From contig CAZBUJ010000010.1 of NCBI GenBank assembly GCA_964495075.1, positions 14,334-78,333 of the forward strand: a stretch of 64,000 nt of DNA, given 5' to 3'. Shown in pieces: positions 35,152-49,005 of the stretch (the first letter of the stretch is position 1; every line of letters starts with the position of its first letter). This DNA comes from an uncultured Phycisphaeraceae bacterium. GTDB taxonomy: Bacteria > Planctomycetota > Phycisphaerae > UBA1845. The translations under genes were made by a program, and so were the position numbers. The notes beneath the pieces were generated by a model that worked only from the letters and a program-made list of their open reading frames with translations, was not told where the DNA came from and did no database searches.

Positions 35152-35306
35152 CCGCTCACGCGGATACGGACCGAACCCCGCACCGCCACGGCCCGAATCG
35201 CCCCGCCGCGCATTGTTGACTTGCCGTTAGGCCCAACTTAGAGTGAATTTATCGGGCCCACGGCAGGGGATGGCCGGTCGGTGGGGCGGCGGAATGGGAG
35301 AGGACT

Positions 35307-36368
35307 ATGCGATCGCATCCGGTTCGATTCTCGAAGATACGCACGCTCGTGGTGGTGTTCGCGGTGCTGGCCATTCTCGGCGGCGCAGGACTCATCGCCC
35401 TCGGCGTCAGGGAAACCCTGCGAAGCGGGCTGACCCCGTCGGGCGGCGTGCCGTTGATCGCGGCCGGCCTGGCGACCATCGCGGTCGCCTTCGCGGCCGT
35501 CGCCATGACCTGGCTCCTGGTGAAAATCGAGTCGCACACCAACCGCCAATACAACCAGCTCATCGACCTGTGCGATCTCATCAAGAACGAGGCGAACGTC
35601 CTCTCCTCCATCGCCCAGAGCAGCCGGATCTCGGAGGCCGTCAAGTCCATCACCGGACGCGAAGAAGAGCGGGAGGCCCTCCGCGCCGCCATCCGCGAAG
35701 ACATTTCCCGCGAGGACTGGGAAGCCGCCCTCTACCTCGTCGATCAGATGGAGCAGCGGTTCGGGTACCACGACGAGGCGGAACGACTGCGCCGTCAGGT
35801 CATTGACGAACGCACCAGCGACATGCGCAACCGGTTGAACGAAGCGCTGGGACGCATCGAAGAGCACTGGGCCGCCTACGAATGGGACCGCGCCGCCCAG
35901 GAAATCCAGCGACTGTTGCGGGCGCTGCCCGACGACAAGCACACCCGACGCCTCCCCGAAGAACACCAGAAACGGCGCGAGGCCCGCAAGCAGGAACTGC
36001 TGGCCGCCTGGCGAGACGCCGTCCGCCCCTCCTCCGCCCAGGAGGACGACATGGACCTCGACAAGGCCATCGCCGTGCTCACCGAACTCGACCCCTATTT
36101 AACGCGGGAAGAAGCCCGCGCCCTGGAAGAGTCGGCCCGCGGCGTGTTCCGGGCCAAGCTGGCCCGGTTCGGCATGCAGTTCGAGCTGGCGGTCAAAGAC
36201 CAGCGATGGCGCCAGGCCCTCGAAATCGGGGTCCAGATCATCGAGGAGTACCCCAATTCCACCATGGCCCAGCAGGTGCGCGAGATGGAAGGGGTGCTCC
36301 GGCAGCGCGCCGGACTGACCGGCGACGTCGAGGTCACCGTCCACCCCGCCCCGGCGTCCGATAACTAG
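35307..36368 (+). CDS. Membrane-anchored (2 TM) helical/TPR-like protein, hypothetical
   Basis: 353 aa. Two N-terminal TM helices followed by about 260 aa of charged helical sequence. Confidence 0.55.
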   Translation: MRSHPVRFSKIRTLVVVFAVLAILGGAGLIALGVRETLRSGLTPSGGVPLIAAGLATIAVAFAAVAMTWLLVKIESHTNRQYNQLIDLCDLIKNEANVLSSIAQSSRISEAVKSITGREEEREALRAAIREDISREDWEAALYLVDQMEQRFGYHDEAERLRRQVIDERTSDMRNRLNEALGRIEEHWAAYEWDRAAQEIQRLLRALPDDKHTRRLPEEHQKRREARKQELLAAWRDAVRPSSAQEDDMDLDKAIAVLTELDPYLTREEARALEESARGVFRAKLARFGMQFELAVKDQRWRQALEIGVQIIEEYPNSTMAQQVREMEGVLRQRAGLTGDVEVTVHPAPASDN

Positions 36369-36605
36369 CCCGGGTGCCCCGCTCCACCCCGTAACGCCCG
36401 CGACCCGCACGGGACGCCCGCCGCGCCGACCACGCATTTACTCTTTAAACCGACCCGATAATCGGCCGATACGCCTGAGACCGGTCCACCGGGAACTGGG
36501 CGTGCCCCCGGCCGGTCCCGTGCGGTCCGAGAAACTTGCCCGACCGTGCTATCGAATTTTACGCTGTGAACTGACGGTTGGGGAACTGAGGTCTCTGGAT
36601 GGCTT

Positions 36606-37988
36606 GTGATGGCGGCTGCAATCCAAGGGGGCCGACCACGCCGAACGCTCGGCCAGTGGATCCGGGCGTCGGTTCTCGGTCTACAATGCAAATCCACCGT
36701 GCTCGTCGTCGCCCTGACGCTCTGCGTGGCGACCGTCGTGGGCGGACTGTTCGTTCACTTCGCCGGACGCCTCACCGCGAAGAACCAGGAACGACACGCC
36801 ACCCAGCTTTGCGCCGGATTGGCCCAACTGGCCGCCGATGCCCTCGCCCAGCGGGACTGGCCGCACCTGCAGCGAGTCGCCAACAAATTCGCCAGCGGTG
36901 ACCCGCTCATCTTCGTCTCCTTCTGCGATGCGCAGGGCCGGTCGTGGGCATCCGCGTCCCGGAACGACCTGCCGATCGACCCGGCCTGGCTCCAGCTCGG
37001 GGAGGACGCCCGCCGAACGGTGGGCCAGCCTCTGCTCCGCTACGAGCATCCGGGCGTCCCGACCTTCCTCGACGTCAGCTACCCCATCAACCGAGCACTG
37101 GCGGCCACCGACGGTGGGCCCAGCCCACTGCTCGGGTACGTGCGAGTCGGCTTCAATGTCGATCCCACGCTGAAGGAGTTCGCGGGGGTGATGGATCTCG
37201 TTTCCGGCATCGCCCTGGTGGTCGTCCTCATCACGATCCCGTTCGCGTTCCTCGTCGTCCGGCAGATCGTGGTGCCGCTCAACGAGCTGTCGCTCACGGC
37301 CGAGAAGCTTGCCCAGGGCGACCGGTCCGCCCGCTCCCGCGTGAGCCGGACCGACGAGATCGGACAACTCGCCCGGTCGTTCAACCACATGGCGGACGAG
37401 ATCGATCGCAACGAAAAGAAGATCACGGCCATGAACGCGGACCTTGAGGAACGGGTCCGCGATCGCACCCGGCAGTTGAAGGAGATGGCAGCCCGCGATC
37501 CGCTCACCGGCCTCTACAACCGGCGCCACGTGGACGAGGTCCTCGCCCGCAGCTTCGCCGAAGCCAAGCGCTACGGGCACCCCCTTTCCTGCCTGATGAT
37601 CGATCTCGACAACTTCAAGGCGGTCAACGACCGGTTCGGCCACCATGCCGGGGACCAGGCGTTGATGCTGGCCGCGGACACCGTTTCGGGCGAGTTGCGG
37701 GCGTCGGACATCGCGGCACGCTTCGGCGGCGACGAATTCGTCGTCCTGCTGCCCCACGCCGAGCAGGAACAGGCGGCCGTGCTGGCCCGGCGGATCGCCG
37801 ACCGGTTCGCGAGCAACATCCGGGCCGCGCTGCCGACGCTCCGTACGCGATTGAGCATCGGAATCGCCAGTCTGGGCGACGGCGACGCGGATCGTCCGGA
37901 GGGCCTGGTACGAGCCGCCGACCGCGCCCTCTACGCCGCCAAGCAGCGCGGGCGCAATCGCATCGAAATCTCGCGAGTCCCCGTATAA
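36606..37988 (+). CDS. Diguanylate cyclase (TM sensor, HAMP, GGDEF) with an RxxD I-site
   Basis: HAMP (LNELSLTAEKLAQGD...IGQLARSFNHMADEI) and an active site RFGGDEFVVLL preceded by RASD five residues upstream. Confidence 0.85.
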   Translation: MMAAAIQGGRPRRTLGQWIRASVLGLQCKSTVLVVALTLCVATVVGGLFVHFAGRLTAKNQERHATQLCAGLAQLAADALAQRDWPHLQRVANKFASGDPLIFVSFCDAQGRSWASASRNDLPIDPAWLQLGEDARRTVGQPLLRYEHPGVPTFLDVSYPINRALAATDGGPSPLLGYVRVGFNVDPTLKEFAGVMDLVSGIALVVVLITIPFAFLVVRQIVVPLNELSLTAEKLAQGDRSARSRVSRTDEIGQLARSFNHMADEIDRNEKKITAMNADLEERVRDRTRQLKEMAARDPLTGLYNRRHVDEVLARSFAEAKRYGHPLSCLMIDLDNFKAVNDRFGHHAGDQALMLAADTVSGELRASDIAARFGGDEFVVLLPHAEQEQAAVLARRIADRFASNIRAALPTLRTRLSIGIASLGDGDADRPEGLVRAADRALYAAKQRGRNRIEISRVPV

Positions 37989-38151
37989 TTCTGTAAGCAC
38001 GCCCGCGAATACACGGGTGTCGGAGCGGTGGCGCCCGACGCATATGCGGTTCTGCGACGCCCTTTCTAATCGCAGCCGCGGACGTTGTGTGTTATGGTTT
38101 CAGTGGGCGGGCGAACCGCCCCCCAGGACTCCCGAATGGCGGTGATCGACG

Positions 38152-38562
38152 ATGTGGACGGAAGTCGGAAAATTCGTCGGCGGCAAGGTCCTGACGGCCG
38201 TACTGGTCGTCGGCGTGTTTGCCAGTGGATTTTGGTTCTACAGGCATCCGGAGCAGCTCCAGGCCATCTGGGGCGTGCTGAAATCGGTGCTCGCCTGGCT
38301 GGGATTCGTGATTGTCCTGCCCTGGGCCCTCTTTTTCGTGGTGGCCTGGGTCCGGCGGTTCGACAGCAACGCCGCCGCCGCCGCCATGCTGATTGCGTAT
38401 CTGCTGCTGGACGTGCTGGCCGCCCTGTACCTCGCCGGCTGGCACGTGAGCGGGGCCCTGACTTGGACCGTGCTGGTCCTTGGCTTCCTTGCAGCAGGAG
38501 TTTATAATTTCCTGGCCTGTGAGACGATCGACAACCGGCTCGAATCGTCCGAGGGCCTGTAA
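38152..38562 (+). CDS. Four-TM small membrane protein, hypothetical; first gene of the ESCRT-III/Vps4-like cluster
   Basis: 136 aa with four clear hydrophobic helices. It ends 22 nt upstream of the kinase ORF. Confidence 0.5.
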   Translation: MWTEVGKFVGGKVLTAVLVVGVFASGFWFYRHPEQLQAIWGVLKSVLAWLGFVIVLPWALFFVVAWVRRFDSNAAAAAMLIAYLLLDVLAALYLAGWHVSGALTWTVLVLGFLAAGVYNFLACETIDNRLESSEGL

Positions 38563-38625
38563 CGCCCGCGGTGGGAACGACGGGTGGACAGGGCCGAGCC
38601 GGCACAGAATAGGGAGGACCTGGCG

Positions 38626-39645
38626 ATGGTCAGCCTGAAAGCAGGCGACCGAATCAGCAACTACCTGCTCGAGGAGCTGGTGGGGACGGGCAGCTTCGCC
38701 CAGGTGTGGAGAGCCCGCCATCATACCCTTGACAAGGTCGTCGCGATCAAAGTCCTGACCGACCAGCAGTACGTTCGGAACTTCCGGCAGGAAGGGGTGG
38801 TCGTCCACGGACTGCGGCACCCCAACATCGTGCGGGTCGAGGACATTGACGCGTACGATGATCCGCCGTATCTGATCATGGAACTTGTGGACGGGCCCTC
38901 CTTGCGGAGGGTGATCGATGCCCACCCGGACGGATTGCCCATCCCCGCGTGCCAGACGGTGTTTGGCGGGTTGTGCAAGGCCCTTTCGTTTGCCCACGAG
39001 AACGGTTTGATCCATCGGGACATCAAGCCGGCCAACATTCTGCTCAACCATCGCGAAGACGATCTGACCACGCTGACGGAGCAGGCGGTCAAGGTGGGCG
39101 ATTTCGGCCTGGGCCGCACCGGCGGCGTGACCACCGCATCCATCATGCAGTCGGGCAGCCTTCAGACGGAAGAGGGCCGAAGCATCGCCGGCACCCTCGC
39201 GTACATGTCGCCCGAGCAGAAGGAGGGCGGGGCCGTGGACGCGCGGAGTGACCTCTATGCGTGCGGCATTGTCCTGTTCGAGATGCTGACGGGCAGTCGA
39301 CCGGCCGGAGTGGAGATCCCCAGTTCCGTGCGTTCGGACGTCCCTCCGGTCCTGGACGAGGCCTTTCGTCGCTGCTACACGCGGCTGGATCGCCGTGTCG
39401 CCTCCGCCGGTGACCTGCTCGACATCGTGCGGCGTACCGGTCCGTCGGGGCCGGCGGCGGCCGGCGGGGGGCTGACGTGCCCGTCGTGCCACGGGCGCGT
39501 CGCCGGTGGAGACCAGTTCTGCACCCACTGCGGATACCAGTTGGTCGAGTCGGTGCCGCGCTGTCCGTCGTGCCACGCGTTTGTCAATCGCACTGACCGG
39601 TACTGCATTTTCTGTGGGACGCAGTTGCAGAGAACCGGCGAGTAG
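38626..39645 (+). CDS. Ser/Thr protein kinase with a C-terminal double zinc ribbon
   Basis: GTGSFAQVW, VAIKVL, HRDIKPANILL, DFGLG and TLAYMSPEQ. C-terminus CPSCHGRVAGGDQFCTHCG...CPSCHAFVNRTDRYCIFCG. The ATG at 38626 is preceded by GGGAGGA. The maximal ORF starts with GTG at 38584. Confidence 0.85.
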   Translation: MVSLKAGDRISNYLLEELVGTGSFAQVWRARHHTLDKVVAIKVLTDQQYVRNFRQEGVVVHGLRHPNIVRVEDIDAYDDPPYLIMELVDGPSLRRVIDAHPDGLPIPACQTVFGGLCKALSFAHENGLIHRDIKPANILLNHREDDLTTLTEQAVKVGDFGLGRTGGVTTASIMQSGSLQTEEGRSIAGTLAYMSPEQKEGGAVDARSDLYACGIVLFEMLTGSRPAGVEIPSSVRSDVPPVLDEAFRRCYTRLDRRVASAGDLLDIVRRTGPSGPAAAGGGLTCPSCHGRVAGGDQFCTHCGYQLVESVPRCPSCHAFVNRTDRYCIFCGTQLQRTGE

Positions 39646-39662
39646 CATCGGGATCGAGTGAG

Positions 39663-39920
39663 ATGGCGTCGTGGATCTTCATCATCTTCGCGATCGTCCT
39701 CGTGGCCGGGCTCGTGCTCACCGCGGTGCTCATGATCATGTTCATCGTTCATAGCGCCAAGCGGTCGTTGTCGGGACAATCGCCGCGCCAGCCGGCCGGC
39801 CCCGCCCGACGCGTTGGTGACCGACGGGCGAATGTTGACCGGATTTGTCCGAATGATCATTGTAGGCATCCGAACCGGTCGGATGCCCTCTATTGCGGCC
39901 AGTGCGGACGGCGGTTGTAA
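39663..39920 (+). CDS. Small single-TM protein with a C-terminal zinc ribbon
   Basis: 85 aa. TM helix WIFIIFAIVLVAGLVLTAVLMIMFIV, then CPNDHCRHPNRSDALYCGQCG. Confidence 0.5.
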   Translation: MASWIFIIFAIVLVAGLVLTAVLMIMFIVHSAKRSLSGQSPRQPAGPARRVGDRRANVDRICPNDHCRHPNRSDALYCGQCGRRL

Positions 39921-39923
39921 ACG

Positions 39924-41396
39924 TTGACCGATTCATCGAGCGGACAATCCGGCCGGCTGAACGCGGACGCGGCGGAGACCCTTCGGGTCGAGACGGAGTT
40001 TCTGTCCGGCGTGGAGGCCAACCTCGAGGCCGCCAAGGGCGGGCTGTTGCCCGGCGATCGCTGGCGTGCCGTGCGGGACGACGAGAGCGACGCCTTGCGG
40101 GCGATGATGGCCTCCCGGCGGATGTACGACCGCGAGTTGCTCAAGCAGCTCCCGCACAACCGGCGGATCGTGGTCCAGGGCTCGCAGCGTCGCTGGCTCC
40201 TGTTCCGCCGTCCGACCGAGGTGGCCATTGCCACCGTGGTGGCACCGTTTGAGCACTTGCTGACGCCCGAGTCGACCACCGCACCCCCGGTCACGCTCGG
40301 CGAGTTGACCGCCCACGTGCGCGGGCTGGTGGGCGAGGCCAAGGTGCCGCACGTTGTCGGCGTCTGTTCGCCCAGCGGATTCGCCGACGACGTGCGGGAG
40401 ACGCGCCTGGACATGCCGAACGTCACCATCGTGCTGGTCGAGCCGCGGGCGGGCGGCGGGTGGACCATCGCGACGCCCGGCGGAACCCAGGTCTCGGAGA
40501 ACATCCGAAAGCTGTACGACCCCGAGGCGATTAGCCAGAAGGTGACCCGGGCGCTGCGGGAGATCGAACACCGCCGGGTCGACCTGTTGACGGGCGGGCT
40601 GTCGGCCGCGTCGATCGCCGCGGGCACCGGGCTGCCCGAAGGAGTGGTCATGTTGGCCTTCAAGAAGGTGGCGGGCGAAGACACCGAGCTGCGCGTGACC
40701 CGCCGCTCGGGACATGTGGTGCTCTACCGCGGAGCGCCATCACGGTCGCAGGAGAGTAGTGCCATGAACGTCGTCGATCGCATCCGCGCACTGTTTTCAT
40801 CGGAAGGCGACGAAGCCCAGAAGATCAACGTGCTGGCCGAGCGACGGGCCAACCTCGCCCAACGCCGCGATCGGCTCTACGAGGACATCGGCAAGCTGGA
40901 AAAACGCGAGGCCGAGCTGCTCAATGAAGGACGGACGTCCAAATCGCAGGTCACCCGCCGGCGGCTGGCCGCCCAGCTGGGGCAGCTTCGCAAGGACATC
41001 GCGCGGCAGAACACGACCGCCAACATGCTGAATCAGCAGATCAACATCCTCAGCACCGACATCCACAACCTCACGCTGATCCAGCAAGGCCAGATGGCCA
41101 GCCTGCCCAATACCGAGGAACTGACCGAGAACGCGGTCAAAGCCGAGGAAATGCTCGAAACCCTCCGGGCCGACGCGGACATGGTCGCCGGCCTGGAAAC
41201 AGGACTGGCCGACGTGGCGACCAGCGACGAAGAACTGGCCATTCTCAAGGAGTTCGACGAGCCGGAGGCACCGAGGCAAACGGCCAGCGCCGACAGCGCG
41301 GCGGAACGCGAGGTGATGCGCGAGTTCGACCAACCGCAAGAAGAGGCGAGGCCAGAGAAGAACGCAGGGAAGCAACGGGCCGACCCGGAGGCGTGA
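39924..41396 (+). CDS. Fusion protein: unknown N-terminal domain (about 270 aa, possibly ending in a winged helix) plus a C-terminal ESCRT-III/Snf7-like helical domain
   Basis: The region from about aa 275 (MNVVDRIRALFSSEGDEAQKINVLAERRANLAQRRDRLYEDIGKLEKREAELLNEG...LRKDIARQNTTANMLNQQINILSTDIHNLTLIQQG...TENAVKAEEMLETLRADADMVAGLE) follows the Snf7 helix pattern, with a basic hairpin and then an acidic tail. The tail carries the repeated motifs LAILKEFDEPE and REVMREFDQPQ. Confidence 0.6.
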   Translation: MTDSSSGQSGRLNADAAETLRVETEFLSGVEANLEAAKGGLLPGDRWRAVRDDESDALRAMMASRRMYDRELLKQLPHNRRIVVQGSQRRWLLFRRPTEVAIATVVAPFEHLLTPESTTAPPVTLGELTAHVRGLVGEAKVPHVVGVCSPSGFADDVRETRLDMPNVTIVLVEPRAGGGWTIATPGGTQVSENIRKLYDPEAISQKVTRALREIEHRRVDLLTGGLSAASIAAGTGLPEGVVMLAFKKVAGEDTELRVTRRSGHVVLYRGAPSRSQESSAMNVVDRIRALFSSEGDEAQKINVLAERRANLAQRRDRLYEDIGKLEKREAELLNEGRTSKSQVTRRRLAAQLGQLRKDIARQNTTANMLNQQINILSTDIHNLTLIQQGQMASLPNTEELTENAVKAEEMLETLRADADMVAGLETGLADVATSDEELAILKEFDEPEAPRQTASADSAAEREVMREFDQPQEEARPEKNAGKQRADPEA

Positions 41397-41441
41397 GCGA
41401 TCCGTCCCGCAAGCCCGACGAGACACCGCGAAGGTACAACG

Positions 41442-42050
41442 ATGGACTTCTTCGACTGGCTGACCAAGCGAAAGAAACCGCTGTCCGAAATGTCGCGAGC
41501 CGAACTCCGGCGGCAGGAGCTGCTGCTGGAGAAAGACCGCACGCAACTGCTCAACAAGGTCACCAAGCTGGCCAAGGCCAAGCAGGAGCTGTTCGAACGC
41601 GGGGCCGGTGAGAAGACCCCCGAAGTCCGGCGCATCCTGGCCCAGGAGTTCGAACTGAAGACCACCGAGCAGCTCATGCTCTCCCGGCAACTCAATATCC
41701 GCAGCAAGGAGATGATGACCGTCTCCCGGCTGCGGATGCTCCGCGAGAACGCCGAGCGGGCGGCCAGTACCGGCGGCAAGCTCGGCCTGATCAACGAAAA
41801 GGACATGCTGCGCCTCGGACGCCTCATCGAGAACGACTCGATCAAGGCCGAAGCGTACCAGGAGCGTCTCGACGAGATCCTCTCGATGGGGGCGGAAGTG
41901 GACGAAGGGGCCGCCGGGCTGTCCGAGGCCGGTCAGTCCGTGCTCGACATCTGGGACAAGATGGACGCCGGCGCCATCGCGGACTCGCGGGAAGCGTTTG
42001 AGGAAGCGGATCGACGCGTCCGGGAGCAGGCCAGTCCGGCCGAGGAGTAG
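41442..42050 (+). CDS. ESCRT-III/Snf7 (PspA-superfamily)-like protein
   Basis: 202 aa. N-terminus MDFFDWLTKRKKP, a basic helical hairpin in the first half, and an acidic C-terminal half. The length and charge asymmetry are typical of ESCRT-III subunits. Confidence 0.65.
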   Translation: MDFFDWLTKRKKPLSEMSRAELRRQELLLEKDRTQLLNKVTKLAKAKQELFERGAGEKTPEVRRILAQEFELKTTEQLMLSRQLNIRSKEMMTVSRLRMLRENAERAASTGGKLGLINEKDMLRLGRLIENDSIKAEAYQERLDEILSMGAEVDEGAAGLSEAGQSVLDIWDKMDAGAIADSREAFEEADRRVREQASPAEE

Positions 42051-42056
42051 CCCATC

Positions 42057-42257
42057 ATGGCGGGATCGCAACCACTGCGTCGATCCGTCAACAACCGTGT
42101 CATCGCCGGGGTGGTGGGAGGCGTCGCCGAGCACTTCGGCCTGGACGCCACCCTGTTGAGGGTGGTCTACGTGCTGGCGAGTGTGCTGTCGGCGGCGTTC
42201 CCGGGTATGCTGGTCTACCTCATCTGCTGGTTGATCATCCCCGAGCGCGAGTATTAG
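42057..42257 (+). CDS. PspC-domain membrane protein
   Basis: 66 aa. LRRSVNNRVIAGVVGGVAEHFGLDATLLRVVYVLASVLSAAFPGMLVYLICWLIIPE is a canonical PspC domain. Confidence 0.8.
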   Translation: MAGSQPLRRSVNNRVIAGVVGGVAEHFGLDATLLRVVYVLASVLSAAFPGMLVYLICWLIIPEREY

Positions 42258-42322
42258 GCAACCAGACCGTCGTGCAGAAACCGGGGAGCCCCGGTCGTCC
42301 GCGCGAAACGCGAGCGGAACTC

Positions 42323-42922
42323 ATGGCACTATTCAAGTCAGCGGAAGAGCGGCGGATTGAACGCGACATCAAGATCCGGCAGGGCATCCGCCGGATCGAG
42401 AAGGCCATTCGCGAGCAGAACAAGTTCGCGGACGAGTTCATCAAGAACGCCCAGCGGGCCAGGAAAATGGGCGACAACGCCCAGTACAAGTTCATCCGCA
42501 ACTCGCTCAAGAAAACAGCCGCCGTCAAGCGGGCCCTCGAGCGGCAGTTGCTCTCGGTCAAAAACGCCCTGCTCATCAAGCGGCAGGCCGAGGCGTCCGC
42601 CGACTTCGCCCAGTGCATGGGCACGATGGCCACCGAGATCGGCAAGCTGTTTGGCGAGACCGACCTGCTCAAGACCCAGGCCGATTGGGAGAAGGCCATG
42701 GTCCAGTCGCAGTCGATGGAGGAACGGATGTCGATGTTCCTCGACACCATCGAGGACATCGCCGCCGAAGACACCGAGGCCGCTGAACTGGTCACCGACG
42801 AAGAGATCGACCGCATGATCGAGGCCGAACAGGAAGCCGAGCACCAGAAAGAGCTGGGAAAACTCGCGAACCTGCGAGCGGAGCTGGACTCCTTGAAAGG
42901 CGAAGGCGAGAAGCAGAAGTGA
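42323..42922 (+). CDS. ESCRT-III (Vps2/CHMP1-2-like) protein with a C-terminal amphipathic MIM-like helix
   Basis: 199 aa from the ATG at 42323 (MALFKSAEERRIERDIKIRQGIRRIEKAIREQNKF...). The order basic N-half, acidic C-half (DTIEDIAAEDTEAAELVTDEEIDRMIEAEQEAE), then terminal KLANLRAELDSLKG parallels CHMP-type subunits. The maximal ORF starts with GTG at 42272. Confidence 0.7.
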   Translation: MALFKSAEERRIERDIKIRQGIRRIEKAIREQNKFADEFIKNAQRARKMGDNAQYKFIRNSLKKTAAVKRALERQLLSVKNALLIKRQAEASADFAQCMGTMATEIGKLFGETDLLKTQADWEKAMVQSQSMEERMSMFLDTIEDIAAEDTEAAELVTDEEIDRMIEAEQEAEHQKELGKLANLRAELDSLKGEGEKQK

Positions 42923-42927
42923 GCGGT

Positions 42928-43128
42928 AATGACAAATTACAAATTACTAATTACTAATGAACATGGCGGCAGAGCGGGTATCGGCAAATGGATATACGAA
43001 TAATTGGATGCAAGGGCCGGGAAGCGAGATGTGCCGGTGTGCGCCCTCCTAATGGGCCATACACAACAATTGACAATAGCTCCGTTGCGTCGCCTCATTC
43101 GTAATTAGTAATTGGTAATTAGTAATTC
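42928..43128. repeat. AT-rich imperfect inverted repeat (about 33-bp arms, each about four tandem heptamers of AATTACN / GTAATTN) flanking a core of about 135 bp
   Basis: The left arm at 42928-42960 reads aatgacAAATTACAAATTACTAATTACTAATGA. The right arm at 43096-43128 reads TCATTCGTAATTAGTAATTGGTAATTAGTAATTc. About 29 of 33 positions are complementary by my hand alignment. The repeat ends 11 nt before the Vps4-like ATG. Confidence 0.7.
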
Positions 43129-43139
43129 ACCTGCGTCCC

Positions 43140-44258
43140 ATGACCGTGTCCTTTTCAACCTTCGAGCGTCTCAAGACCAAGGGCGTCTGCGCCTACAAGA
43201 AGGGCGAGTACAACTCGGCCAAATCGTACCTCATCGAGGCCGCCGAATGCATGGTCGAGCTGGCGGAGAAGGCGCCATCGGCCGAAGTGCGCCGTCAGCG
43301 CGAGGAGATTGCGGCCGAGCTGATCGACCTGGCTCGCGATTGCGAACGATACAAGACCTCGCCACCCCGGCGGCGGCAGGCCGCACGGGAACGCGACGAC
43401 GACAGCGGCCGCGACGCCTCCGACTGGATCCTGAAGGAGAAGCCCGACTTCGGCTTCGACCATATCGCCGGCCTCGATGACGTCAAAGAGGAAATCCGGC
43501 TCAAGATGATCTACCCGTTCAACCACCCGGAACTCGCCCGGAAGTACGGGATCGGGGTCGGCGGCGGCGTGCTCCTCTACGGGCCGCCCGGCACGGGCAA
43601 AACCATGATGGCCAAGGCCGTCGCCCACGAGGTCGAGGCGACCTTCTTCGTCATCAGCCCCGCCCAGGTGCTGAGCAAATGGGTCGGCGAGGCGGAGCAG
43701 AACATCCAGAAACTCTTCGACGCCGCCACGAGTGAGGCGAAATCAGTCATCTTCATCGACGAGATCGAGGCCCTCGTCCCGCGGCGTAAGTCGGACGGGT
43801 CGAGCGTCATGCAACGCGTGGTCCCCCAGATCCTCCAGGAGCTGGAAGGATTCGACCGGAAGGGGGACCGGGCCCTATTATTTGTCGGAGCCACCAACAA
43901 GCCGTGGATGCTGGACGAGGCCATGCTGCGGCCCGGTCGGTTCGACACGCGAATCTACCTGGGCTTGCCCGACCCGCCGGCGTTGTACCGGCTATTGGAG
44001 ATCTACTTCGGCGACCGCCCGCTGTCCGACGACGTCGACTTCAGCCGCCTGTGCGACGGGCTCGACGGCTACAGCGGCGCCGACATCAAGAACATCGCGC
44101 AACAGGCGGCGGCCATCCCGTTTATGGAATCGGTGGCCGGAGCGGAGCCGCGCCCGATCGCGATGAAGGACATCGAAAAGGTGATCGAAAGTACCCCGCC
44201 TTCGGTCAAGCAATCGGACCTCGTGCGGTTCGAGAAGTTCGACAGCACGGGTCGATGA
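43140..44258 (+). CDS. MIT-domain AAA+ ATPase, Vps4-like (meiotic-clade AAA)
   Basis: 372 aa. An N-terminal three-helix, MIT-like region (KGVCAYKKGEYNSAKSYLIEAAECMVELAEKAPSAEVRRQREEIAAELIDLARDCERYK). Walker A GPPGTGKT, Walker B IFIDEIE, second region of homology ATNKPWMLDEAMLRPGRFD. The C-terminus STPPSVKQSDLVRFEKFDSTG resembles the Vps4/katanin/spastin tail. Confidence 0.85.
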   Translation: MTVSFSTFERLKTKGVCAYKKGEYNSAKSYLIEAAECMVELAEKAPSAEVRRQREEIAAELIDLARDCERYKTSPPRRRQAARERDDDSGRDASDWILKEKPDFGFDHIAGLDDVKEEIRLKMIYPFNHPELARKYGIGVGGGVLLYGPPGTGKTMMAKAVAHEVEATFFVISPAQVLSKWVGEAEQNIQKLFDAATSEAKSVIFIDEIEALVPRRKSDGSSVMQRVVPQILQELEGFDRKGDRALLFVGATNKPWMLDEAMLRPGRFDTRIYLGLPDPPALYRLLEIYFGDRPLSDDVDFSRLCDGLDGYSGADIKNIAQQAAAIPFMESVAGAEPRPIAMKDIEKVIESTPPSVKQSDLVRFEKFDSTGR

Positions 44259-44342
44259 CCCGGGGCGACACCGCAGACGAAAGGAAGCGCTTCGGCGGCG
44301 ACCAAGGTGACCGAACGGGCGACGGCGGCCGGAGGTAAGACG

Positions 44343-46100
44343 ATGACAGCCAGGTTCGATGCCAAGCGCCTGTTCAACGACGTGGACGCCGTGGCGGCCG
44401 TGGTGCCGGCATCGGAGGTCTTCTCGCTACTGACGCGTGCGCTTGATCTTCCGCCCGCGTGGGCGGCCCTCGTCGGCGACGTCCAAGGGGGGCAGCGGTT
44501 CTTCGCGCCCGGTGAGGTCGTACCGCGCGAAAACGCCGATGAGCTGCTCCTCGTACGCGTCACGCCGATCGACCTCCGCGTCCAGGAATCCGGCCTCGTC
44601 TCCCGCGACAAGTACCAGTTCGATGCGGAAGTCCGCGTCCGGGTCGCGCTCATCGCCGATCGCGGGGAACTCAGCTCGTTTCAGAACACCGCGCTGGGCA
44701 GCAAGCGGACGGCCACCAGCGACACGTTGGCCCAACTCCTCCGTCCCGACATCCGGTCCGCCCTCATCGACGTGGTCGGCGAGTCGAACGCGGAGACACT
44801 GATCACCGATGCCGACCGCCACACCTGGTCCGACCGGCTGAACGCGGCACTCAAGCCGGTCTGTTTCCGCGCCGGCCTGGCCGTCGACGCGGCCCCGTCG
44901 GTGCGCTTCGATTCGCCGACGTTCCGGCAGGTGCGCGTGTCGCAGGAACAGACGGCCCGCCATCAGGCCGAGCACCAGGCACGCCGACAACTGGAGCAGG
45001 CCATCGAAGCGGCACAGGTCGAACACCTCGACCACCTCGAGAGCCTGCTGGCCCGGTTGAAGGACGCCGCCGACTCCTCACCGGACGTGGAACTGCCGGA
45101 GCTCATGCGTACCTTCTCGCAACGAGAGCGCGGCGAGATGTACGAGGCGCTGTTCGCGGCGGATTCGGTGCAGGCCACACGGTGGATCGTGGTGGCCACC
45201 AGCGACGGGCTTTACTGGTTCGACCCGGCATCGCCGGGCGAACCGGCCCGCGCCGTCGACGTCGTGCCGGAGGTCGGCGGGATTCGAAGCGTGCACTGTC
45301 TGCGTTCGTCCGCGAGTGATCAGCGACTGTTGCTCGGCGCCGCCCGTGGCGTGTACGAGTTCGTGCCCGAGGGCACGGATCCGGCTGCGATCTATGTCGC
45401 CGATCGGCAGCGCGAGGTCCGCGGCGGGTTCAACGCGGTCGCGCTGGCCGGCCGCCAACTCTGGGCGTCGCACTCGGAACTCGGCCTGGTCCGCTGGGAT
45501 CGCACGGCGCCGGACCGACCGGAGCCCGTTCTCGAATCGCAAACCCAAGCCGCCCGCGCGGTGCGCGGCGTGCTGTTCCACGAAGGGAAGATCTGGGTCT
45601 CGCTCGACGACCGGGTCGCGTCGCTGCCCGCCGATGCTCCCGGGTCCGAGCCCGATTGGTATACCGGCAGCGAGGCGACGATCACGGCCCTGGCCGTCAC
45701 GCCGGGCGGCGTGCTGGGCGGCACCGCGGACGGCCGGATCCTGCACTGGCGGTTCGACGAACCCCGGGCCCCGCAGACGCTGCACACCGGAAACCGGCGT
45801 TCGGTCGAGTCGATCCACGTGCTCAGCACCGGCGGCGTCGATCGCCTCTTCTTCACCGACACGTCGCTGGCCGTCCACGCCCGGGTGCGGGGCGATTCGT
45901 TTACGTGCCGTTACGAGGCGGGCGGCCAGACGTTGCGGCGGGTGGAGGTCATGCCGGACCTGATCGTGGCCACCAATGACGTGCGCGATCGCCTGGTCTG
46001 CTGGTCGCCGTCCAGACCCGACCAGCCCCGCGCGGTCATCCCCGTCGCCCGGCTGACCCACCATTCCGTACAGGATGTCTGCCTCGTGCCGACGGCGTGA
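44343..46100 (+). CDS. SPFH/Band-7-like N-domain, coiled coil, and C-terminal beta-propeller-like domain protein
   Basis: The N-domain pattern (LLLVRVTPIDLRVQ...FDAEVRVRVALI...LAQLLRPDIRSALIDVVGESNAETLIT...AGLAVDAAPSVRFDSPTF) resembles SPFH. It is followed by a Gln/Glu/Arg-rich coiled coil and about 300 aa of repetitive beta-rich sequence. An alternative GTG start lies at 44307. Confidence 0.55.
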   Translation: MTARFDAKRLFNDVDAVAAVVPASEVFSLLTRALDLPPAWAALVGDVQGGQRFFAPGEVVPRENADELLLVRVTPIDLRVQESGLVSRDKYQFDAEVRVRVALIADRGELSSFQNTALGSKRTATSDTLAQLLRPDIRSALIDVVGESNAETLITDADRHTWSDRLNAALKPVCFRAGLAVDAAPSVRFDSPTFRQVRVSQEQTARHQAEHQARRQLEQAIEAAQVEHLDHLESLLARLKDAADSSPDVELPELMRTFSQRERGEMYEALFAADSVQATRWIVVATSDGLYWFDPASPGEPARAVDVVPEVGGIRSVHCLRSSASDQRLLLGAARGVYEFVPEGTDPAAIYVADRQREVRGGFNAVALAGRQLWASHSELGLVRWDRTAPDRPEPVLESQTQAARAVRGVLFHEGKIWVSLDDRVASLPADAPGSEPDWYTGSEATITALAVTPGGVLGGTADGRILHWRFDEPRAPQTLHTGNRRSVESIHVLSTGGVDRLFFTDTSLAVHARVRGDSFTCRYEAGGQTLRRVEVMPDLIVATNDVRDRLVCWSPSRPDQPRAVIPVARLTHHSVQDVCLVPTA

Positions 46101-48340: not shown

Positions 48341-48904
48341 CTATGCGCACCCGCCGCAACCCTCGCCCGCCTCGCGCTCCGCGTCCGGAAGTAGCCCCAG
48401 TCGCTCGACCTGGCCCGTGGAGAGCCGATTCCGCGCCACTTCGTCCGCGTCGTTCGCCTCGTGGCAGTGCGGACATTCGCACCCGTTGGCCAACCCTGCC
48501 TCATCCGTGGCGGCCAGCTCGCCGCACCAGTCGCAACGGAAGTAGATCGCATCATACGCGGCATGGTCGTCCACCAGCGAACCCAGCACGTCGATCTCTT
48601 CCCCGCAATGCGGACACGCCTGTTCCGTACCGGCGGCCGCCGCGTCGAAACGGGCCTGCTCATCACAGAACGGACAAATCAGGAAGATCATGCCCGGTTC
48701 GTCCTCCGCGGCCCCGATCGACGCGTCGCCGGACACGTCCGCACCATCCGCGCTCTCCCGGCTTGCCAGCCATCGCTCGGTCTCGGTCGGCAAGGCGATG
48801 AAGGTGTGGCACTGCGAACACTCCACCGTCGTACCGGCCGCGATTCCCGGGTATCGGCCGACCGCGCCGCACGCCGAGCAAGCCATCTCGATCTCGTCCG
48901 CCAT
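48341..48904 (-). CDS. Acidic protein with four zinc-ribbon (CxxC...CxxC) modules, hypothetical
   Basis: From the ATG at 48904: CSACG...CSQCH, CPFCD...CPHCG, CDWCG...CPHCH, and a terminal CGGC. Confidence 0.55.
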   Translation of the reverse strand: MADEIEMACSACGAVGRYPGIAAGTTVECSQCHTFIALPTETERWLASRESADGADVSGDASIGAAEDEPGMIFLICPFCDEQARFDAAAAGTEQACPHCGEEIDVLGSLVDDHAAYDAIYFRCDWCGELAATDEAGLANGCECPHCHEANDADEVARNRLSTGQVERLGLLPDAEREAGEGCGGCA

Positions 48905-49005
48905 TGCATCGCTCCCTGCCACATTATCCGCGCCGGCACGCCGCCGGGCCGGCCACGACGATTGTCGCGGTCCTCCCGTTCCCATACAATCCCGCACGAA
49001 GAGGA

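Follow-up and report, generated by a model that had tools for sequence, protein, structure and literature searches.

The ESCRT-III homologue PspA works in bacterial systems that have no Vps4-like disassembly ATPase (PMC7619361), and according to a 2025 review an ATPase of this kind appears to be absent from bacteria. Ravi et al. (2024) report Vps4-like ATPases that were transferred to bacteria, Planctomycetes included, with the snf7 gene replaced by a gene for a TPR-6TM protein (PMC11237479, Text S2.2); separately, they describe a divergent, membrane-anchored Snf7 together with a two-domain AAA ATPase (PMC11237479). Here we describe a cluster of nine genes at positions 38152-46100 of a stretch of 64,000 nucleotides from an uncultured Phycisphaeraceae bacterium (contig CAZBUJ010000010.1; this whole stretch is called the window below), in which a gene for a Snf7-family protein stands directly upstream of a gene for a Vps4-like ATPase. 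We favour, with fair though not high confidence, the reading that the cluster encodes a bacterial membrane-remodelling machine of the ESCRT-III/Vps4 type, and that this machine is a conserved, chromosomal and housekeeping-type system in the Phycisphaerae.

Several other described systems bear on this locus. In B. subtilis, membrane proteins recruit an SPFH protein (YdjI/SamI), which in turn recruits PspA (bioRxiv 10.64898/2026.02.06.704340), and SPFH proteins have been linked to archaeal ESCRT loci as well (PMC11188069). Planctomycetes are all without ftsZ, and the Phycisphaerae divide in a manner like binary fission, by a driver that is not known (PMC6952346, PMC12673574). In the literature that joins Phycisphaerae or Planctomycetes with ESCRT, Snf7 or Vps4, of which PMC7203096 was covered only in part, we found no description of the cluster. 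The original prediction, which was made from the letters of the window alone, was right in placing the host among the Planctomycetota (the class is Phycisphaerae). It had also supposed that the pairing of Snf7-like and Vps4-like genes may itself not be new, and the surveys did not bear this out: what they report are the bacterial Vps4-like ATPases with a TPR-6TM gene in the place of snf7. A conserved bacterial cluster with a true Snf7-branch protein beside a Vps4/CdvC-like ATPase contradicts the view that the pairing is absent from bacteria, and bears on when and where the cycle of polymer and ATPase arose, or on its spread by gene transfer.

The Snf7-family proteins and the ATPase

The seventh gene of the cluster (42323..42922, + strand) encodes a protein of 199 aa; its open reading frame gives 216 aa from a GTG at 42272 and 199 aa from the ATG at 42323, which is the start used in public gene calls. 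The Snf7 signal of this protein came only from a diverse alignment of representatives, after shallow searches had failed: neither a single-sequence phmmer search nor a shallow ortholog profile (effective number of sequences, Neff, ~1.4) returned anything from the PDB. The diverse alignment has 56 members and was built from an exhaustive search of 50%-identity representatives (301 clusters, down to ~23% identity). Run against the PDB, the resulting family profile matched CHMP2A at 1.1e-5 and near full length (residues 12-147 against 9-144), followed by CHMP3 at 0.0017 (four entries), Snf7 at 0.023 and CdvB at 0.05, with CdvB2 and CHMP1B also among the matches; 12 of the 17 matches were ESCRT-III proteins, colinear with the profile over nearly its whole length. 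Pfam Snf7 (PF03357) was matched individually by 34 of the 56 alignment members, the best at 1.1e-7. PspA_IM30 (PF04012) was not among the top families listed for these 56 relatives, and with zero PF04012 matches a PspA-type identity for the polymer protein was rejected. Judged by its family profile, the 199-aa protein is a genuine member of the Snf7/ESCRT-III family, closest to Vps2/Vps24 (CHMP2/3).

The predicted structure agrees with this assignment. In the AlphaFold2 model (predicted local distance difference test, pLDDT, 76.7), helices at residues 7-49, 52-91, 95-110, 115-128, 132-148 and 159-198 form a long hairpin and four shorter helices, as in the alpha1-alpha2 hairpin and the following alpha3 to alpha5/6 of ESCRT-III proteins. 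When the model was searched against the PDB with Foldseek, the best eight matches were CdvB2/CdvB (E 0.03-0.14, probability 0.84-1.0); modest E-values are usual for flexible all-helical folds. The orthologues of the protein share the invariant N-terminal motif M[AG]LFKS and, at the other end, a conserved amphipathic helix, KLAxLRAELDSLK, which follows an acidic linker and in which L181, L184, A186, E187 and K192 are invariant. This terminal helix resembles MIM1 in its spacing and may serve as a MIT-interacting motif.

Two further proteins of the cluster, one of 490 aa (39924..41396, + strand) and one of 202 aa (41442..42050, + strand), are more distant. The AlphaFold2 model of the 202-aa protein (pLDDT 78.6) has helices at 19-56, 60-110, 119-155, 162-175 and 182-197 with a helical hairpin, a layout that would fit an ESCRT-III protein in which alpha2 and alpha3 are merged. 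Single-sequence phmmer and a shallow ortholog profile (Neff ~1.4) of this protein found nothing in the PDB, and hhalign gave no link between the shallow ortholog profiles (Neff ~1.4) of the 199-aa and 202-aa proteins. In the 490-aa protein, the C-terminal half (~283-445) is a helical hairpin region with an acidic tail after it; hhalign linked this half to the 202-aa protein (probability 61%, E 8e-5), and aligned each of the two with the Snf7-like family at low probability (E 0.0018 for the 202-aa protein, E 0.0049 for the C-terminal half). A protein of 213 aa from a distant locus (L083:7830-8471) is homologous to the 202-aa protein (BLASTP 5.6e-8) and matches Pfam Snf7 at 0.011; in hhalign it reached a probability of 60% against the Snf7-like family and of 86% (E 5e-6) against the profile of the 490-aa C-terminal half. 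Because this intermediate bridges the 202-aa protein and the 490-aa C-terminal half to Snf7, we treat both as probable, very divergent members of the ESCRT-III superfamily. The original prediction had counted three ESCRT-III/Snf7-like proteins in the cluster; one of these is firm, and the other two are probable by way of the intermediate only.

The N-terminal half of the 490-aa protein (residues 1-275) matched no Pfam or PDB family, and a stray EAP30/Vps36 match (E 0.06) in one relative of this half was discounted. Just ahead of the helical C-terminal half, the segment LLTGGLSAASIAAGTGLPEGVVMLAFKKVAGEDTELRVTRRSGHVVLYRG at residues ~215-270 has the look of a winged helix, which is an impression only; in this part the orthologues gave only scattered, sub-threshold Pfam matches to helix-turn-helix and winged-helix families.

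The eighth gene (43140..44258, + strand) encodes an ATPase of 372 aa with, in order, a predicted MIT-like N-domain, a linker, one AAA cassette and a Vps4_C region. The AAA domain (PF00004, 1.9e-41) contains the Walker A/B motifs GPPGTGKT and DEIE and an aromatic KW pore loop 1, SKWVGE(A). The cutoff of Vps4_C (PF09336), 21.3 bits, is exceeded both in the whole protein (30.1 bits, 1.6e-8) and in the isolated C-terminus (34.8 bits), and the C-terminus is colinear, by eye, with the C-termini of Vps4 and CdvC. Of the NCBIfam models, CdvC matches best over the full length (residues 13-367, 246.7 bits), and the motifs SKWVGEA and TNKPW are as in CdvC. In a neighbour-joining tree of AAA domains (272 columns), the ATPase and its distant bacterial homologues group with CdvC, Vps4, katanin and spastin (the 'meiotic' clade) with 100% bootstrap, and the same split sets it apart from Cdc48 D1/D2, PAN and FtsH; we regard this placement as provisional, because the tree is small and has few references.

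The N-terminal helical domain of the ATPase, ~70 aa long, was assigned by a less direct route. Its best single PDB match is the MIT domain 2MPK, and this match is weak (E 0.32), while a profile of the domain found only TPR and designed bundles in the PDB. Compared by hhalign with the MIT domains of Vps4 and CdvC, it scored 16.7 against a column-shuffle maximum of 16.4, which is not significant. Against the N-termini of homologous ATPases from three distant loci (L084, L086 and L088), the profile reached 17 bits with a shuffle maximum of 7.8 (hhalign probability 71%), and the ATPase of L086 itself matches PF04212 (MIT) at 9e-7. These intermediate homologues indirectly suggest that the N-domain is MIT-like. 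The original prediction of an MIT-AAA Vps4-like ATPase is upheld by Vps4_C and by the clade placement, including the separation from FtsH, Cdc48 and PAN, whereas the MIT part is reached through intermediates and not through a direct Pfam match.

Partner genes, gene order and conservation

The open reading frame list of the window places all nine genes on the + strand, with intergenic gaps of, in order, 21, 17, 3, 45, 6, 65, 217 and 48 nt; the run of co-directional frames with short gaps and a single AT-rich spacer of 217 nt, which had been noted from the raw sequence, was found as described. Pfam also bore out the calls made at that stage for a kinase with a double zinc ribbon, a PspC protein, an AAA protein and an SPFH protein. 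The kinase (38584..39645, + strand, 353 aa; public gene calls start it at 38626) is of the Hanks Ser/Thr type, with Pkinase at 1.4e-39, a C-terminal double zinc ribbon matched by DZR and Zn_Ribbon_1, and intact VAIK, HRD, DFG and SPE motifs. A membrane protein of 66 aa (42057..42257, + strand) matches PspC (PF04024) at 1.7e-22. The last gene (44307..46100, + strand; 44343 in public gene calls) encodes a 597-aa SPFH protein, in which Band_7 is matched at ~residues 77-237 (4.6e-7, 30.5 bits against a cutoff of 23.6) and in which the C-terminal half has internal repeats of ~45 aa (hhalign self-comparison, probability 93%). These repeats fit a propeller, so that of the earlier 'SPFH-like/propeller' description the first element is established above cutoff and the second is compatible with the sequence.

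Two small membrane proteins complete the set. The first gene of the cluster (38152..38562, + strand) encodes 136 aa with four hydrophobic segments and belongs to no Pfam family. The third (39663..39920, + strand) encodes a miniprotein of 85 aa with one transmembrane segment and a C-terminal zinc ribbon of the pattern CxxxxC...CxxC, for which the Zn_Ribbon_1 match (4.9e-4) is below cutoff. In searches with Pfam and NCBIfam no cluster protein matched a CdvA-like domain (PRC barrel plus coiled coil), nor the PF04012, PspB or PspF models, and Pfam found no TIR, CHAT, nuclease or other effector domain in any of them.

The 199-aa protein has 2,666 relatives in a 90%-identity clustered collection, and the named ones come from metagenome-assembled genomes of Phycisphaerae/Planctomycetota. 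A scan of species-representative genomes gave 230 matching stretches, from which 80 loci were kept, complete Phycisphaerales chromosomes among them; presence and median identity of each gene were determined by tblastn of the window proteins in the 38 of these loci that were fully flanked. In most of the 80 genomes the order and orientation of the genes for the membrane protein, kinase, (miniprotein), 490-aa protein, 202-aa protein, PspC, 199-aa protein, ATPase and SPFH protein are kept. Such recurrence across species-level genomes shows that the arrangement is not due to chance, and the conservation of the neighbourhood across the Phycisphaerae is strong. The original prediction had named three outcomes that would speak against it (helical proteins that fail against Snf7/PspA profiles, an ATPase that groups with FtsH/Cdc48/proteasomal AAA proteins, and a lack of synteny); each was checked, and none of the checks overturned it.

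The genes of the polymer and the ATPase are the best conserved. The 199-aa Snf7 gene is present in all 38 loci at a median identity of 79%, the 202-aa gene in 34 at 74% and the ATPase gene in 32 at 71%, compared with 57% for the kinase gene (34 loci). Lower medians were likewise obtained for the PspC gene (60%, 27 loci), the 136-aa membrane protein gene (55%, 31 loci), the 490-aa gene (54%, 34 loci) and the SPFH gene (42%, 30 loci). The miniprotein, which public gene calls on near-identical contigs (L001) leave out, is placed by tblastn at the same position in 14 of the 38. In the three closest genomes the Snf7 protein is 88-89% identical, compared with 80-82% for the neighbouring Leu dehydrogenase. 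Searches of phage and viral collections found no relatives, and the only plasmid match was weak and lay on a 375-kb replicon; a mobile or phage origin was rejected on these searches. A full cluster of the Phycisphaerae type, at 79% identity, was also found on a 558-kb contig labelled 'Alphaproteobacteria bacterium' (L031, JANQQE010000024.1), and this bin is probably mislabelled.

The unit may be larger than nine genes. Two co-directional genes lie upstream: one for a 353-aa protein with an N-terminal hydrophobic segment and a helical region (35307..36368, + strand), which matches no Pfam family and is preceded by a promoter-like site at 35216-35244, and one for a membrane signalling protein of the diguanylate cyclase type (36606..37988, + strand), identified by Pfam HAMP and GGDEF matches of the identical gene in L001. 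They are syntenic with the cluster in 21 and 25 of the 38 fully flanked loci, respectively, and because of this frequent synteny the functional unit may span 35307-46100, with 11 genes, rather than start at 38152. Its borders are a divergent gene of the Leu-dehydrogenase type and a convergent gene for a Na+/H+ exchanger, and the genes flanking the cluster are those of ordinary metabolism and transport. Downstream, beyond the exchanger gene, a protein of 218 aa with several zinc ribbons is encoded on the - strand (48341-48997); its match to TackOD1 ('Thaumarchaeal output domain 1'), at 6.7e-6 and 26.2 bits, stays below the cutoff of 32.

The 217-nt spacer between the Snf7 and ATPase genes (42923..43139) has a GC content of 46%, compared with 65% for the block as a whole. 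It is edged by inverted arrays of the heptamer AATTAC[T/A], one of four copies at 42928-42961 (+ strand) and one of three at 43101-43127 (- strand), a total of 7 matches where 0.06 would be expected, and the heptamer occurs nowhere else in the window. The spacer RNA folds with z = -2.9, and Rfam found nothing in the region. None of the 80 related loci has the motif and only near-identical contigs carry the spacer, so this could be a small insertion gained recently or a regulatory element particular to the strain. The junction of the Snf7 and ATPase genes is variable in general (L003-L082): the gap is 13-260 nt in roughly one half of the loci, while the other half carry insertions of 0.6-3.7 kb. 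One such insertion (L006, 6700-10380) encodes two co-directional multi-transmembrane proteins of ~540 aa, one of which is TMEM260/PMT-like (glycosyltransferase type).

Relatives of the Snf7-like and AAA pair are also found adjacent to each other in distant bacteria, often with an SPFH gene. Three such loci, L084 (4143-9346), L085 and L086 (4913-10145), have genes for an SPFH protein, a ~320-aa helical protein, a Snf7-like protein and an MIT-AAA ATPase, followed by a TIR_2 protein of ~610-655 aa. L088 has Band_7_1, two unknown proteins, a Snf7-like protein and an AAA protein; L083 (7830-14929) has the 202-aa homologue, an AAA protein, a Snf7-like protein, a kinase and a CHAT protease, with several Ser/Thr kinases alongside; and P0258 and L090 stand in contexts with a ~205-aa protein, an AAA protein, a Snf7-like protein and another AAA protein. 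Since Snf7-like relatives elsewhere again adjoin ATPases of this type, the Snf7-like and Vps4-like pair is a recurring bacterial module, in some lineages joined to immune-type effectors. The modules of L083-L086 have the appearance of immune or conflict systems that share this core, and a defence function is quite likely for the relatives linked to TIR or CHAT.

Further relatives are fused to other domains. Six proteins of 430-510 aa (P0347, P0350, P0359, P0372, P0373 and P0378) combine a Snf7-like domain at the N-terminus with an FtsK/SpoIIIE ATPase domain at the C-terminus (PF01580, 1e-9 to 3e-30), and in two others of ~420 aa (P0289 and P0304) the Snf7-like domain is C-terminal. On the 375-kb replicon of Ca. 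Chlorohelix allophototropha (L089, NZ_CP128401.1; 6641-12242), a 192-aa Snf7-like relative with 30% identity sits between genes annotated as 6-bladed beta-propellers and FHA-domain proteins, with no AAA ATPase nearby. This is a further link of the Snf7-like family to propellers and to phospho-Ser/Thr signalling.

Readings of the cluster

If the cluster is a membrane-remodelling machine of the ESCRT-III/Vps4 type, as we suggest, its parts can be arranged in a working model. The sequences show that the 199-aa protein belongs to the Snf7 family, that the ATPase has Vps4-like features, which accessory domains are present and that the gene order is kept; from these we infer polymerisation, MIT-tail binding, disassembly, the order of recruitment, control by phosphorylation and the cellular role. 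On the cytoplasmic side of the inner membrane the 199-aa protein would form a polymer, probably with the 202-aa protein and the 490-aa C-terminal half as further subunits, and conserved hydrophobic/basic motifs at the N-termini would keep this polymer membrane-bound. Through its MIT-like domain the ATPase would bind the conserved C-terminal helix of the polymer subunits, and the ATPase hexamer would then pull subunits through its SKW pore loop, leading to turnover or tightening of the polymer. PspC, the small transmembrane and zinc-ribbon proteins and the SPFH-propeller protein may label the site on the membrane, or sense it, and bring the polymer there, a role for PspC and the SPFH protein that we have modelled on PspC and YdjI/SamI acting for PspA, and the Ser/Thr kinase, possibly with the HAMP-GGDEF protein, would set the timing. 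Our best guess for the cellular role is constitutive remodelling or repair of the inner membrane, with cytokinesis as the main alternative; maintenance or repair is pointed to because the set of partners is as in the PspA-YdjGHI/SamGHI system. If the role is indeed membrane repair, this would be the first bacterial ESCRT-III polymer coupled to ATP-driven turnover, with PspC/SPFH partners and under the control of a kinase.

The same molecular machine could serve a more specific role, as a Cdv-like engine of cytokinesis in the FtsZ-less Phycisphaerae, where Snf7-like polymers at mid-cell would be removed stepwise by the ATPase to bring about constriction and scission. We consider this possible, though on the unlikely side. 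It is kept in view because the polymer and ATPase genes are so highly conserved, exceeding the co-located signalling genes in their median identities and, for the Snf7 protein, the neighbouring Leu dehydrogenase in the three closest genomes, and because these bacteria divide by binary fission without FtsZ; several ESCRT-III-like paralogues with one ATPase also mirror CdvB/B1/B2 and CdvC (PMC7615534), and some distant family members are fused to the FtsK/SpoIIIE domains mentioned above. Against it, the cluster has no CdvA-like protein, the window shows no link to dcw genes or ftsK, and PspC, SPFH and zinc-ribbon/transmembrane miniproteins typify stress systems of the PspA type (PMC11237479; bioRxiv 10.64898/2026.02.06.704340). 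Moreover, in archaea that have both FtsZ and ESCRT-III, the latter serves other tasks (PMC7619361). We can only speculate, as a minority view, that the cluster is the division engine of the Phycisphaerae, regulated by Ser/Thr phosphorylation, within a wider and undescribed family of Snf7, Vps4-like and SPFH proteins that is elsewhere reused in immunity or fused to FtsK. The locus offers a concrete candidate for the means by which free-living planctomycetes carry out binary fission in the absence of FtsZ (PMC6952346, PMC12673574).

A number of observations speak against an ESCRT-III/Vps4-type machine of either role. The window's own 199-aa protein matches Pfam Snf7 only at E 0.34, and its membership is set at the level of the family. 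The 202-aa protein has no direct Snf7 match in the Pfam and PDB searches, and Foldseek of its model is non-specific, with BAR domains and designed bundles first and CdvB2 at rank 21; the profile of the 490-aa C-terminal half found only designed or generic coiled coils in PDB and Pfam, and no direct Snf7 or PspA match. PF04212 matches none of 40 orthologous ATPase N-termini, which gave weak TPR_2 matches only, and an NCBIfam search of these 40 returned no direct MIT match. The ATPase has the motif RPGRFD, as in Cdc48, PAN and FtsH, and not a second region of homology of the RRF(E/Q)KR type; Cdc48-D2 and CdvC give much the same score with its core (189 and 180 bits); and its full-length CdvC score of 246.7 bits compares with an NCBIfam equivalog cutoff of 650. 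To these we add the small number of references in the AAA tree, and 8 of 46 loci in which no ATPase gene lies within a downstream flank of at least 6.5 kb. Because of the RPGRFD motif and a score so far below the CdvC cutoff, we describe the ATPase, from its sequence, as Vps4-like and not as a CdvC orthologue.

Much of this would suit a reading in which there is no ESCRT-like cycle, and in which generic coiled-coil or scaffold proteins act with a Cdc48/PAN-like unfoldase and the SPFH protein in the quality control of membrane proteins. The equally good Cdc48-D2 score of the core, the retained RPGRFD, the lack of a direct MIT match and the two of three helical proteins without a direct Snf7 match all point this way, and SPFH proteins are known to partner AAA proteases, HflK/C being the partners of FtsH. 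We nevertheless believe this reading to be improbable: the 199-aa protein is specifically of the Snf7 family, with most of the PDB matches of its profile being ESCRT-III proteins, the ATPase combines a Vps4-specific C-terminal helix with the KW pore loop and a grouping in the meiotic clade, the cluster has no protease domain, and Snf7-like and ATPase genes stay adjacent across very distant lineages.

Least of all do we expect a system of anti-phage defence or abortive infection, with a membrane-acting Snf7-like effector under the control of the kinase and the ATPase: although distant Snf7-like, MIT-AAA and SPFH modules lie directly upstream of TIR_2 genes or beside CHAT and kinase genes, and although the kinase and ATPase score against PADLOC kinase (PD-T4-6, mad6) and IetA models, such a role is very unlikely because the Phycisphaerae cluster has no effector domain, has no relatives in the phage and viral collections searched (the sole plasmid match being the weak one on the 375-kb replicon) and is conserved, in a housekeeping-like manner, in sequence and gene order far above what is usual for defence islands, and its flanking genes are ordinary ones. 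A known defence system was rejected, since the PADLOC matches are of generic Pkinase/AAA (IetA/TRIP13) similarity only; seven of the nine proteins have no or only a marginal PADLOC match, and the helical, PspC and SPFH proteins match no defence model.

Comparison with described systems

Of the eukaryotic systems, the closest is the pair of CHMP2/CHMP3 (Vps2/Vps24) and VPS4, as CHMP2A and CHMP3 are the best profile matches of the 199-aa protein. We take the two sides to share an MxLF N-terminus, an acidic linker with an EIDR-like motif and a Leu/Lys terminal helix like MIM1. They differ in that sequence identity is only ~15-20% and in that the locus described here has no ESCRT-0, -I or -II and no ubiquitin links.

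The likeness to the archaeal Cdv system extends to the gene arrangement, with a Snf7 gene beside a gene for a single-cassette AAA-Vps4_C ATPase of ~370 aa that has a putative MIT-like N-domain and, judged by length, is without the eukaryotic beta domain. Several ESCRT-III-like paralogues are present in both, the ATPase agrees with CdvC in its pore loop (SKW[VL]GEA) and its TNKPW motif, and CdvB2/CdvB and CdvC are the best structural and NCBIfam matches, respectively; archaeal loci are also SPFH-linked (PMC11188069). The possible winged helix in the 490-aa protein would echo the winged-helix domains tied to archaeal ESCRT systems. On the other hand, the host here is a bacterium, CdvA is missing from the cluster, two of the paralogues are very divergent, and the ATPase, which scores far under the cutoff of the CdvC equivalog model, carries RPGRFD in the place of RRFxKR. 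The set of partners differs as well, being PspC, an SPFH-propeller protein, transmembrane and zinc-ribbon miniproteins and a Ser/Thr kinase.

These same partners bring the locus close to the Psp systems (PspA-PspBC, and PspA-YdjGHI/SamGHI of B. subtilis), which likewise combine a protein of the ESCRT-III superfamily with PspC, SPFH and small transmembrane or zinc-ribbon genes. In the Phycisphaerae cluster, however, the polymer protein belongs to the Snf7 branch and not to PspA_IM30, regulators of the PspF, PspB or Lia type are missing from the cluster, and there is a Vps4-like ATPase, for which the Psp systems have no counterpart (PMC7619361). With the bacterial Vps4 operons that are linked to TPR-6TM genes (PMC11237479), finally, it shares a Vps4-like AAA protein, a distribution that includes Planctomycetes and a membrane-proximal context; it differs from them in having no TPR-6TM gene and in carrying, directly upstream of the ATPase gene, a gene for a Snf7 protein.

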